NCBI GenBank assembly: GCA_905178155.1
Contig: CAJINV010000034.1
Coordinates: 75,350 to 139,349 of the forward strand
From: Amoebophrya sp. A120
Lineage: Eukaryota > Protista > Dinoflagellata
DNA: 64,000 nt
Direction: 5' to 3'
Of this stretch, positions 47,234-53,200 are shown one piece after another. The notes below the pieces were generated by a model. That model was not told the origin of the DNA, ran no database searches, and saw only the letters and a program-made list of their open reading frames with translations. Within the stretch, counting starts at the first letter, position 1. Each line of letters begins with the position of its first letter. The translations under genes and the position numbers were made by a program.

Positions 47234-50200
47234 ATGTGGGGTGGCGGAGCTCCGGGTGGCTTTGACAATTTTGGCGGTGGCTTCGACAAGAATGGTGGCG
47301 GGTTCGGCGGAAAGAAGGGCGGAGGCGGCTTTGGTGGCGGAAAGGGTACTTAAAATTATGTCGTGTTTTTCTGCCAGGTACACGACAGTAAAACCAACAC
47401 CATAATGAGATTTTATCTAATCTTGTGGTGCGGATGACCCTCCATCATGGATCTCGCATGTCTGCCATGCGTGTTTAAGTTGCAGGAGGTTGTCATGCAA
47501 AATAAGACCATCACTTCATCAAAATGTCACTTAGGTAAAGGCAAGGGCGACGGAAAGAAGGGCGGCGGAAAGGGGAAAAACTCGCATCGGCAGAACCATG
47601 ATGACATGAAAGCCGCAAAGGCGGCCCGGGAGGACCAGCACTTCATGATTTTATCAACTGCAAGTGTGTCATCTGGGTCTGGATCTGGAAGGATGCAACT
47701 TGTGATGCTGCATCTGGATTCCACAAAAATCTGTATTGCATGAACAGCAAAAGAGGTCCAGTTTTTCCCATGGTGAGAGGGCATTTCTGATACGGTATAG
47801 GCATCAGGAAGCCCTCTCAAAGTCTGTGATGCTAGGGCATGCATCACAGACATCAGGAGTCATGCAAAATGTGCATGACAAACCTGGCATCGTTCCAGAC
47901 CCAGACGTATTTGCAATTGATAGATTTGCCAGGAGCACAACAAGCAGTCCCGCATGCTCAAGGATGTCCACATTGACAACGAGGAGGAACTTTTCAACGT
48001 GGAACACTCGGTATGCATTGCAAGAGTATCGTACTACTACTAGTATGAAAATCGCATGACAAATCTCCTCAGCATGGGAGAAAGAATTTGTAATGCAGAT
48101 TTGCCTTGAGGAAAGAGACTTGTAATGCATGGCTGCAATTACTACAAGTTTACGGTACCTATTGCAAGGCATACTCGGAGATGGGTGTGGATTTCTCGAG
48201 GTACGACAACATTCCAGTGGAGGTGAAAATCCAGGGTGCCGATATGGTAGTGCATTTAGCCCCCCCTGCTCCACCACCCTCGTTTGTCATGCAAAAATGC
48301 AATCCGAGCCGTTGCCTTGTAGGCTTTACTTGCATGACAAGCTACACCAGAACTCCAAACCGTACGTATAGCTAATTTCTGGACTACTTGTCATGCAGAA
48401 GCTACATCTCTGTTTGTTGTTTCTGTTGCTGCTCATGCTATACAAATGCAGGGGATCATCATAAAGGGGGCTATGTGCACTCCGATATCCGAGGGGGTGT
48501 CTTCGGAAGAAACAAAGCACCAGATCATCGAAGGCATGGAGTCCTTTGCTATGAAAGGCAAAAGTATCGTACTAGTAGAAATCGCATCACAAATTTCCTC
48601 ACCAGCATGAGAAATTGAAATAAAAATTTGTAATGCGGATTTACCTGCTTTAGGAAAAGATTTGTAATCCATGACTGCAATTGCAACGAGTGCGATACTT
48701 TTGCAGTTCATATTTGCTACGGCAGCGCAAAAGCACCAGTTCCCGGACTGGCTGCGGGTTAACTTGATGGAGAAATGCAAGTAGAGATGTTGTTGTGTTT
48801 GTTTTGCATGACAAGTTCCGTTTGCTCTTGCTGTTTCCGCATGACAGATCATCATTTCCGTTTGTCTTCATCGAATCAGGTACGACCGACCGACCCCGAT
48901 CCAGAAATACACGGTGGGAATCAGCTATCCAGTGCAAACATGATGTCTGGGTCTGGGACAATGCGCAAGTTCATTACGGCGCAGCTTTTGCATCATGCCA
49001 GGCGTTGTCTGGAATGGAAAGCGAAGCATCACAAATTTATGTTCTAATGCTTCTCTGTACCTACGATCCACCAGGAGAAATCGAAATCCATTCTGAAGAC
49101 GGCGATAATTGGACAGATTCAGCTTTTCATGCTAAACAGATTTTATTTCTACCAGCCAGACTTAGTCGATAACAACCTTTTACTTTCTTCCAGACCTCCC
49201 AGATTTCATGTTTGCATTGCATATCAGCATGCAGGGCTCCGATTTGATGTCCTGTGCGCAGACCGGGTCCGGGAAGACTTGCGCGTTCTTAATCCCAGTG
49301 GCTTTGAACATCCAGCAGACAGCGGCGGATCGGTACTTATCATGTCTGTGGTTGTAAGTTTGTCATCCAGTTCGTATCGGTATGAAATGTTGAACCAAGC
49401 GAGATGTCAGTTCTGCACGACAAATTCAAGTACTAGATTTGTCTACTTACATCACATCAAAACCAACTGAAAAATCCGAACACAACAGCCGCGCCAGCCC
49501 GGAAGCTTGGCAGGGTCCGGCCAAACCCCTCGCCGTCATCCTGGCGCCAACCCGAGAGCTGTGTACCCAGATCCATTTCGAAGCGCGGAAGATCACGTTT
49601 CAGGCGGGGATGCGGTGTGTGCAGTGCTACGGCGGCGTGGATGCCAAGCCGCAGCTGACGGAACTGGCCGCAAATGCGGACTTGTTAATCGCGACACCGT
49701 ATGCAATGCAAAAGTATCGCACTCGTATAAAAAATGCATTACAAATTTCCTCAGCATGAGAAATGAAATTTCTGATGCAGATTTACCTTAAGAAAAAGAT
49801 TTGTAATGCATGAATGCGATTACTACTAGCACAATGCTTTTGCAATGCATACACCGGGGCGAATGAAGGATTTTTTGGAGAGGAACGTGATTTCTTTGGA
49901 TTTGTGCCGCATGTTAGTTTTGGACGAGGCGGACAGAATATGAGAGTGCACAACCCCCCTCCTCTTCATTTGTATTGCATGATACAGCAGCACAAACACC
50001 AGCACTCATGGAGCCTGTGGATGACAAATTCATGCAGTTTTAGTGTAGTACTGTTTGGCCTTCCGGAATCTGTCATGCGTAATAGTGACGCAGGGGAGCA
50101 ATTGGAGTTGAGATTTTGCATGAGAAATGAGAACGAGGGGGAGTTGTGCACTCTTATACAGAATGCTGGACATGGGCTTCGAGCCGCAGATTTCCGACAT

Positions 50201-53200
50201 CGTCGAAAAACGCGACATGCCCGGGAGGGACGAGAGGTAAGAACTGCTCCTTCCTCATGACGGGAAAACGAATTTGTCATGCTAGGGTGCACATTGAAAT
50301 TTCACATTTATGCAGAACGAATTTGTAAATGTAAAAATCGTGGTGTAAGTAAAAAACAAAACCTTCAGGCAATCTATGTTCTTTTCCGCGACCTTCCCGC
50401 AAGAGATTCGGGAACTCGCCGGACGCTTTCTGAAGCAGGATTACACCTTTATCACGGTCTATGCAAGAAGAAAACTGCGTAAGAAGTGTAAATCTGCGAT
50501 GCAGAACCTGCAACGGAGTTACACCTGTCTTGCCAGACAGCCACGCAGTCCTCTTTTCATGTGTGTTTTCCCTTACAAACCACGCATGACAGGTTTTCTC
50601 TGTCATGTAGAGCCAATTTGTGATGCTGTCAGCCAAAGATAGTTACACAAACACAGTTTTTTTCTTGGATACGGTCGGTCGAGTGGGCGCAGCGGCGGAA
50701 ACTGTGGAGCAGCATTTTATTCCGGTGCATACGGAGGAAGAGAAGATTGAGCATTTATTTGCGGTATCAAATGTAAAAATGTCTGGGTCTGGAAGAATGC
50801 CAGACTTGTCATGCAGGTTTTCCATGACCCATGAGGTCTGGTATGGAGGACATAGCATGACAGATTCCGTGAGAGTTCTATCATGCCTATCCTGCATGAG
50901 AAACTGCCTCTCGATTAGGTCAAAAGTGGACAGCTTTTGGCACTCATGCAACACAGATTTTGACATGATTCAGATTTAGCATGACAAGTTCCAACCTTCC
51001 AGACCCAGACATTTTGACACTTCATATGCGGAGATTGGAAGGAGCGAGAGTGGGGACGATAAGGTACTGTGACGTATTGGAAAACTTTTTGACAAATAAG
51101 ATTCTCCGAAAACTACGAACTTTGTCATGCATAAACGTGCATTGAAAGACAACTCTGTCATGCGCAGATCAACATTTTTCAAACTAAACTTCTATCAGGT
51201 CCTGGTTTTTGTGAACCAAAAAAAGACCTGCGCCTACCTTGCCCAACAGCTGCATGACGCTGGGGAAGCCAGGGCAACTTCGATTCACGGAGATTTAGAC
51301 CAGCAGCAGCGAGAAAAGGCACTGGAATTTTTTAAGACGGGCAAGAAGCCGGTCCTACTCGCGACCGAGGTGGCCGCGAGAGGGTTAGATGTGCCGAAAG
51401 TGGCGAAAGTGATTAACTTCGACATGCCGAAAGCCATGGATGGATACGTATAGAGATAGTTAAGTTGGATTTGTGTTGCATATAGATTCTGTATTGAACT
51501 ACGATAAGTCTGTCTTTCATTGTCAAGCATACTTAATCTTCGAAGCGCCAGCTGTAGTGCGATTTTTGTCTACCACTTTATACTCAGCCATGCAAGATGA
51601 AATCAGCTGCTCTAGTGATTTGTGAAATGAAAATAGTATAAATAACACGAAATACATCTCCAAACAACCCTCCAGATCCACCGCATCGGGCGAACCGGGC
51701 GAGTAGGAAATCGCGGCATCTTATCCACAGAAAAAACCCCATCCCCATCCATTTTTTGCATGACAAGCAACGGGCTTGGTACGTGTTTTGCATGACAAAT
51801 TGGATGTGGATGGGTTTTTTTCTGTGCATACATCTCCGTCAGTTTCTTTGTCACACACGGCAACAAAGACTCCGATACCATGATTGCCCCGGACCTCGTA
51901 GAAACACTGGAGCTATCCTGTGCAAAAGCATCGCGTTAGTAGTGATTGCATCACAAATTAGCTCAGCATGCTGTTTCACCTTGGGATGGAGATTTCGATT
52001 TGTAATGCATAAAACTGCAATTACAACTACGAGTGCGATACTTTTGCAGTTCATAGGAGCAGGCCAATCTCGACGTGGATCAGTGGCTGCGGGACGAGAA
52101 ATCCAAAGCGGGCGACATGGCGCACTTCAGAAAGGTATCAACTGCAAAAATCCCTGGATGTCTGGAAGAGTCGCGGCTTGTCATGCACATTTTGCATCAC
52201 CCGTGAGGTCTGTGATGCTGGTGCTAGCATGACAGATTTATTTTTGAGAGCTTCTTGATGCTAAGTAATTACGCATGGGAAATGCCCTTTCCGCGACGTG
52301 CCAAGAACTGACTCCCCTTACTGCTCATGCAAGAACACAGATATTTTTTTTTTTTAGAAGCCTCAGACAGCATTATAAGTTCCTCTCTTCCAGACATCCA
52401 GGGATATTTGCAATCCATAAAAGGCCAAGGGCTTCGGATCTGGCGGTGGCAAGAAGGGCGGTATTAAGAGGAAAATTGTTCCCCCCTCCCCATACTCAAA
52501 GGGAGATTTGTGTAGCATGATTCGCGATCACAAATCACGTGGTCATGCTAGAAGGGAAGAGATCATGCGGACTGTAGTGATAGCTGGCGTTGGAAAGCCT
52601 TGCGGCTTCAGTATGACAGGAAGCAACTGGAAACGGGAAACAGCATGGCAAATTGCCTGCAAAAGAGGGAGCGCCTGCGTCTCTTGGCCTTCTAGCAATA
52701 CAAGTCGATTTATGGTCACAGATCAGCATCACAATATGAGGCGGGGGGATTTTTCCCTACGATAGGCAGTGGCGGCGGCAAGGGTGGTTTTGGCAACGGA
52801 AAGGGCGGCTTTGGCGGCGGCAACAAGGTATGCAATGCAAAATCATCGTACGTAGTATAAATTGCATCACAAGTTTGCTAAGCATGACAAATGCAATTTG
52901 TAATGCTGTTGCACCCTAGGACGAAGATTTGTCATGCATATTTGCAATTCGTACGAGTACCGCGATGCTTTTGCACACGATACAAGGGGGGCGGCGGCGG
53001 CTTCGGCGGGCCGCCGGGCGGACAGTTCAACGGCGGTGGAAAATTCGGAAATGGCGGAGGGAAATTCGGAAACGGAGGAAACGGCATGCCGCCGGGCAAG
53101 TTCGGTAACGGCGGACCGCCGGGCGGAAACATGCAGAACCCGATGATGGGCAAGAATGGCTTTGGCGGTATGCCGGGCGGCGGTCCGGGCGGGTTTTTGT

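Follow-up and report, generated by a model that had tools for sequence, protein, structure and literature searches.

Why would one short sequence motif recur both in mobile introns whose ends are unrelated and in the ordinary GT-AG introns of the same genes? The question arises from a 64,000-nucleotide stretch of the dinoflagellate Amoebophrya sp. A120 (the window; contig CAJINV010000034.1, positions 75,350 to 139,349), in which co-oriented genes are broken up by short TAT..ATA elements flanked by 5-bp direct repeats, and in particular from a DEAD-box helicase gene whose introns are of both kinds. A sequence-only reading of the window had noticed the motif and suggested that it is a binding site for one factor, marking introns in general, or else that the GT-AG introns are old introners that became canonical. 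Here, we find the motif concentrated in elements with terminal inverted repeats (TIRs), set at fixed distances from their tips, and present with like spacing in about a quarter of the ordinary, mostly predicted, GT-AG introns. The explanation that we somewhat favor is that YYTGTVATGC (V being C, A, or G) is a putative half-site on double-stranded DNA for one sequence-specific protein, which would bind cooperatively as part of a mobilizing complex.

A motif concentrated in introners and in some ordinary introns

YTGTVATGC has 163 matches in the window, where 100 dinucleotide shuffles give a mean of 4.45 and a maximum of 10. The shorter form TGT[CAG]ATGC has 172 matches on both strands, distributed as 158 in TIR introns (10.6 per kb) and seven in plain GT-AG introns (5.5 per kb; shuffle mean 0.3), compared with four in exons (0.14 per kb), three in untranslated regions (UTRs) or intergenic DNA (0.22 per kb), and none in the GC-rich inserts of the window. 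The density in GT-AG introns exceeds that of non-coding DNA (p=3e-6), and by hand annotation 63 of the 67 TIR elements and five of the eight plain GT-AG introns in the window carry an exact copy. The contrast first drawn between introns on the one hand and exons and intergenic DNA on the other is thus borne out, and so is the near-absence of the motif from an island at 1-10 kb, where four matches occur, three of them inside one element (7666-7882).

We extended the sample by scanning for the end pattern of one family, which gave 154 loci from one assembly, 651 kb when merged; because the loci were chosen by element presence and one family makes up too large a share of them, we weighted by family or cluster. 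Element families are common to the window and the loci, with identity up to 90%. A motif-blind search requiring a 5-bp repeat and TAT ends found 527 elements in the window and loci together (five detections on reversed sequence), which we grouped with the motif masked into 105 clusters. Their 5-bp direct repeat is perfect in 418 and has one mismatch in 109, their TIRs are about 15-35 bp long, and the cluster-weighted end profile consists of TAT, which the search forces, and A at nucleotides 11-13 in 80-87%. An exact motif is present in 506 of the 527. The profile built on 1390 sites reads (A)YYTGTVATGCD and disfavors T at V; an Rfam search returned 0 matches. At the listed joints (the best 15 per listing) in RNA-type contigs, which come from runs guessed to be RNA, none on record as such, in one sample of one study, the element plus 5 nt is skipped, consistent with removal as introns.

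Both kinds of intron in one helicase gene

The reading frame of the helicase gene is uninterrupted once its 21 introns are removed, the Pfam domains DEAD and Helicase_C match on three exons, and the listed joints of RNA-type contigs include 13 of this gene; a reading of the translation suggests a Ded1/DDX3-like protein. Its features are as follows.

47234..53652, plus strand: DEAD-box helicase gene, 21 introns (15 TIR elements and six plain GT-AG introns)
47346..47534, plus strand: plain GT-AG intron, 189 nt; exact motif at 47490-47498 (plus strand) and two near-matches; RNA-type joint 47344>47534
47652..51026, unstranded: span of nine TIR introners with one to four exact motifs each
47652-47922, 48012-48173, 48243-48487, 48550-48712, and 48926-49223: first five of the nine
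49700-49851, 49939-50158, 50460-50671, and 50765-51026: last four of the nine
48781..48879, plus strand: plain GT-AG intron, 99 nt; placed by frame continuity, no RNA joint among those listed
48806-48814 and 48839-48847, both minus strand: motif pair in this intron, 33 bp apart
49333..49488, plus strand: plain GT-AG intron, 156 nt; two one-mismatch motif copies only; placed by frame continuity
50237..50368, plus strand: plain GT-AG intron, 132 nt; one exact motif at 50274-50282 (plus strand); placed by frame continuity
51064..51198, plus strand: plain GT-AG intron, 135 nt; RNA-type joint 51061>51197
51122-51130 and 51155-51163, plus strand: motif pair in this intron, 33 bp apart
51448..51675, plus strand: plain GT-AG intron, 228 nt; weak motif copies, none exact; RNA-type joint 51447>51676
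51722..51830, unstranded: 109-bp TIR element with a 5-bp target site duplication (TSD); RNA-type contigs skip 114 nt, the element plus 5
51758-51766 and 51790-51798, same strand: motifs of the 109-bp element, 32 bp apart, centers 39 and 38 bp from the tips

The individual sites first cited exist, TTGTCATGC at 47490, 50274, and 51122 and GCATGACAA at 48806, as do two copies of GCATGACAA at 51758 and 51790, inside the 109-bp element. With an exact motif in four of its six plain GT-AG introns, this gene is richer than typical (17 of 69 overall, see below). The intron at 51064..51198 has, besides its pair, a weak inverted motif copy 14 bp past the first site. Downstream, the 3' UTR of the gene (53653-55890) runs for 2.2 kb, is continuous in one contig, and holds no element; no exact motif occurs after 53474.

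Fixed spacing inside the elements

The position of the motif relative to element tips is strongly constrained: a site lies 34-55 bp from at least one tip in 502 of the 527 elements and from both tips in 391, and 14-33 bp from a tip in only three. First sites peak at about 36-41 and 45-51 bp, two positions separated by about one helical turn (~10 bp), and the next sites at 76-85 bp. In about 40 of the 105 clusters, two sites on the same strand stand 30-33 bp apart, against a mean of 8.9 and a maximum of 18 in 300 draws of random placement, and in 12 pooled families this step has p=0.002 for that spacing range. Opposite-strand steps of 13-14, 19, 37, and 45-46 bp also recur, and same-strand spacings of 9-12, 20-22, 41-43, and 51-54 bp are not enriched across families. 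Power in the profile of tip distances is low near 11 bp (0.26) and higher at 31.5 bp (0.33), values that carry no significance test.

A general 10.5-bp periodicity, first suggested by successive motifs about 20, 31, or 42 bp apart in one element, can be rejected, since 30-33 bp alone is enriched among same-strand spacings; the arrangement amounts instead to a single step of about three turns and the two first-site positions. Tandem duplication was likewise rejected as the origin of that step, successive spacers being 33% alike. The element behind the suggestion is given here beside a much longer one.

62349..62617, unstranded: 269-bp element; sites at 48, 80, 114, 134, and 176 (plus strand) and 190 and 222 (minus strand)
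59107..61142, unstranded: 2-kb element with GC-rich cargo; motifs only at its ends, 36 bp from the left tip and 45 and 76 bp from the right

Steps of 42, 32, 30, and 20 bp do occur in the 269-bp element, but near-matches have to be included, and the step of 42 starts from a degenerate motif copy at nucleotide 6, inside the TIR. The 2-kb element fits the reading frame as one intron. Of seven long cargo-bearing copies, five carry sites no more than 55 bp from each tip, or at 37 and 81 bp in L044, and two lack the right-end site. Like the 2-kb element, long copies at L037:505-1608, L063:6184-6998, and L080:817-1788 keep intact ends around cargo that is unrelated and in many cases GC-rich or repetitive; two cargo open reading frames (ORFs) of long copies were scanned and had no Pfam match. 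The TIR itself, at nucleotides 3-13, bears a weak likeness to the motif, scoring above its own shuffles in 86 of the 105 clusters (matrix permutation p=0.02). Sites at set distances from both ends are a feature of the subterminal repeats to which transposases bind.

The same spacing in some plain GT-AG introns

Plain GT-AG introns were predicted with a motif-blinded gene finder, which recovered all eight of those known in the window, plus false calls. Of 221 predictions, 89 were set aside because of their length, poor flanks, or nesting, another 44 because they resemble elements, and 19 because their splice scores were weak; 69 introns remained, seven from the window and 62 from the loci, the latter predicted without RNA support. 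They have a strong base gradient: T makes up 40% and A 25% of the first tenth and A 41%, C 24%, and G 9% of the last, there is no polypyrimidine tract, donors are mostly GTAT or GTAC, and their ends pair with their own partner no better than with the ends of other introns.

An exact motif is present in 17 of the 69, and the remaining 52 tell against the idea that it marks introns in general. The 62 loci introns hold 1.6 motifs per kb, compared with 0.20 per kb in non-genic DNA from which element homology had been removed (p=3e-10; the background before this removal is 0.67 per kb). In the loci, the introns that carry the motif tend to be short (seven of 13 under 150 nt, versus six of 49; p=0.003) and close to elements (median 80 versus 335 nt; p=0.01). 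Of eight plain introns with at least two sites, seven obey the spacings of the elements, as do nine of 15 pairs against a null of 0.83, by ranges that were taken from elements and fixed after some introns had been seen; an unbiased profile of partners has offsets of 32-33, -19, and +13/14, as in elements. A plain intron in another gene of the window also carries the motif.

13894..14129, plus strand: predicted plain GT-AG intron (gene finder); exact motif at 14059-14067 (minus strand), with a weak copy on that strand 32 bp further along

A placement 36-39 or 67-71 nt from the 3' splice site, seen in three of four cases in the window, where it was noticed, was not replicated in the loci, which gave three of 16 with 1.6 expected under the null (p=0.21); a 5' distance of 34-55 nt holds in eight of 20 (p=0.017, one of several tests). 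Motif sites were also present in two of 12 lower-confidence introns.

Probable recognition on double-stranded DNA, and selection

The motif shows no preference for the sense strand of transcripts, either in elements (539 versus 497 copies) or in plain introns (18 versus 13). Inverted partners agree at the variable letters at chance level (0.20-0.39 versus 0.28), and 173 of the 527 elements have the motif in a single orientation. Taken together, the use of both strands, the lack of covariation, the single-orientation elements, and the same-strand pairs of plain introns favor recognition of the motif as double-stranded DNA.

We compared each element copy with its five nearest neighbors, which 460 of the 527 copies had, and counted substitutions private to it. 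These affect 2.5% of motif positions, 3.2% of TIR positions, 5.0% of other positions, and 7.3% of the free V position; the low private change in the motif shows selection, with the element and the host not told apart as beneficiary. Where the TSD of a copy has a mismatch, each of these site classes is slightly more changed. Isolated elements lose motifs faster as a trend only (p=0.09); three isolated elements in long exons of the window (25044-25214, 17841-18035, and 16497-16719) have decayed or missing motifs, one of them with intact TIRs.

A motif shared by unrelated families, at a fixed distance from the tips, with a step of 31-33 bp, on either strand, and with the lowest private substitution rate in the element is what a site for one factor would look like, and to this extent the sequence-only reading appears to have been right. 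In the mechanism that we propose, one protein would bind half-sites on the DNA near both element ends, cooperatively and with a step of about three helical turns, and the bound protein, which we infer to be the transposase or an accessory factor, would help to assemble the moving complex. With a single mobilizer protein, families with different TIRs could share one mobilizer, and unrelated sequences could become families given TAT ends, the A-tract, and motif sites. Cooperative binding of a transposase to subterminal motifs is known for a miniature inverted-repeat transposable element (MITE) from the text of PMC1636448. The copies in plain GT-AG introns have probably been kept or gained under selection, and the protein would then also serve the host in intron-dense genes.

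Several points weigh against this explanation. In predicted element RNA structures, 178 of 398 motif copies are paired with another copy, which counts against recognition of double-stranded DNA, but elements are long imperfect palindromes, and such pairing follows from that. A conservative scan of all spacings in the 12 pooled families gives only p=0.05 for the step. The likeness of the TIR tip to the motif is weak, with no exact copy at 1054 ends, and is largely due to the A-tract. The orientation of the motif relative to the tip varies between families, and most subterminal arrays are not known to have such differences. The comparison of copies with mismatched TSDs, used as a test of age, cannot separate selection for transposition from selection by the host, and a role for a transposase alone leaves the exact pairs in relic-free plain introns unexplained. 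We found no transposase or integrase domain among 157 ORFs of the window and loci, and no autonomous element copy in their 715 kb; the available text of Farhat et al. (PMC7789003) reports no transposase in A120.

Alternative explanations

The motif may instead have been a host signal first. A host DNA-binding protein would mark intron DNA, by positioning chromatin or by recruiting a U1-less spliceosome, and introners would have spread only if they carried the motif near both ends. We regard this as possible, if rather less probable than a mobilizing half-site. It would account for the excess of motifs in plain introns of the loci over non-genic DNA, for their element-like spacings around spacers that match no element, and for the short, element-near introns that carry them; further, at least two exact copies are present in six of the 17 carriers, compared with 2-4% expected after neutral decay to 40% divergence in a simple model, and U1 was not detected in A120 (PMC7789003). 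However, most plain introns have no exact copy, and of the three RNA-supported GT-AG introns of the helicase two carry the motif, the one at 51448 being spliced without it. The 3' splice site distance of the window was not replicated in the loci, and isolated elements show no more than a trend toward faster loss. More doubtful again is a combined scheme in which introns are marked on DNA: a single protein, either of host origin or a domesticated transposase, would sit on a 31-33-bp lattice of half-sites, mobilizing introners and signaling introns to the U1-less spliceosome or to chromatin, and ordinary introns in crowded genes would have evolved the same sites.

It is unlikely that the GT-AG introns with the motif are neutrally decayed introners or fragments from unsampled families, with the motif serving transposition only. 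Shared spacings and closeness to elements would be expected under such decay, and our library of 105 clusters is small next to the 1954 families reported for A120 in PMC7789003. Intermediates exist as well: 13 predicted GT-AG introns are element-like, nine of them with the motif, and the following intron has decayed inverted ends.

815..974, plus strand: predicted GT-AG intron (gene finder) with decayed TAT..ATA inverted ends; no exact motif

This intron is likely an old introner turned canonical, as the sequence-only reading had envisaged, but it kept traces of its TIRs and lost the exact motif. Among the plain introns that carry the motif we found no TSD relic (junction repeats are at the level of shuffled partners) and no TIR relic, their folding z is -0.5 compared with -6 for elements, and the spacers of their motif pairs match elements at the level of shuffles in five of five cases. 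They are single-copy in the 715 kb except for weak matches for three introns; the one carrier with weak homology elsewhere is also the one that departs from the element spacings. Exact pairs are also too many for neutral decay. As a general account of motif-bearing GT-AG introns, old introners are not borne out.

Least probable is an action in RNA, as a two-way branch point (TNAY on both strands) or as intron-folding stems: the sites 36-51 nt from element ends are in a plausible branch-point range and motif copies do pair in predicted folds, but a third of elements have one orientation only, the two sites of a pair share a strand in plain introns as in the 109-bp element and cannot pair, neither a strand bias nor a repeatable 3' splice site distance is seen, and a hairpin role was rejected because covariation between inverted partners is absent.

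Other features of the window and loci

Two tandem units at 28680-28990, similar to family A, have one common left end, and their removal as a single intron restores the frame. The TIR element at 34380-34631 lies just past a stop codon, in a 3' UTR, and is skipped in RNA-type contigs. Around ~58880-58930, the frame of the gene at 56-63 kb shifts without an obvious intron, possibly through a sequence error or a missed small intron. Two GC-rich inserts, at 3360-4620 and 38300-39950, are without the motif, and the first is adjoined by an ORF at 5176-7701 (841 aa, no Pfam match).

Of 295 gaps between neighboring elements, only four fall below 30 nt, most of the short gaps measuring 33-100 nt; neighbors belong to the same cluster in 2.7% of cases versus 6.6% expected, and exon lengths between elements in the window and loci show no periodicity. 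A non-genic tandem repeat in locus L090 (~400-480, excised coordinates) has motif copies 14 and 42 bp apart. Viral contigs contain 29 loci with a motif pair, with two to eight motifs each, which we take as chance, and the TIR pattern has 0 matches in them. The sequence TGCATGCA is an ApiAP2 site, and the motif may have an ApiAP2 link.

Relation to known systems and meaning

The elements resemble the introners described for A120 in PMC7789003 in their TAT inverted repeats, A-tract, short direct repeats, splicing as non-canonical introns, division into many families, and mixture with canonical introns. There, the inverted repeat is given as TAT, about 7 variable nucleotides, and at least 3 A, with a direct repeat of 3-5 nt at the exon/intron border, and some 30,000 introners in about 1,950 families are counted, with their movement and splicing left open. 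Unlike the present account, the available text describes inverted and direct repeat motifs only, with no inverted repeat motif specific to a family, and leaves an internal motif, its spacing, and its presence in plain GT-AG introns unmentioned; the figures lay outside this comparison, and the logos in Figs 3, S19, and S25 of Farhat et al. may bear on the novelty of the motif. No description of the motif was found in literature that included PMC9860276, PMC12005148, and, by keyword, the supplements of PMC7789003 and PMC12130899 except files 13 and 14, a search that did not extend to figures, theses, and most subscription papers; among Amoebophrya papers its sequence matched once only, to a primer (PMC6482013).

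Closer parallels for the motif are the subterminal repeats of Emigrant/Lemi1 (PMC1636448) and piggyBat (PMC11707139), which, as presented there, are short repeats near both ends, related to the termini, and fit cooperative binding. Unlike these, the motif described here is one and the same across families with unrelated TIRs and interiors, in either orientation, and is not confined to elements, the same spacing being present in relic-free host introns. By the texts of PMC10045372 and PMC6839031, IS3EU and GingerRoot likewise have TA..TA termini and GC-rich target sites, but their TSD is usually 6 bp, compared with 5 bp here, and GingerRoot TIRs are 100-150 bp rather than about 15-35 bp. Introns of Fritillaria, euglenids, and Polarella (review PMC11282704; Gozashti 2022, 2025) share TIRs, TSDs, and non-canonical ends with the A120 elements, whereas the text available for these accounts mentions no shared internal spaced motif.

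The motif is thus a real and quantified feature, a variant of subterminal binding repeats common to unrelated introner families and to a minority of ordinary introns. As a conserved, spaced sequence it offers a bait for the protein that would mobilize introners, as well as a sequence variable with which splicing efficiency and element age could be compared in the public genome. Should the plain-intron copies be under selection, a recognition code of transposons would be common to the introns of their host.

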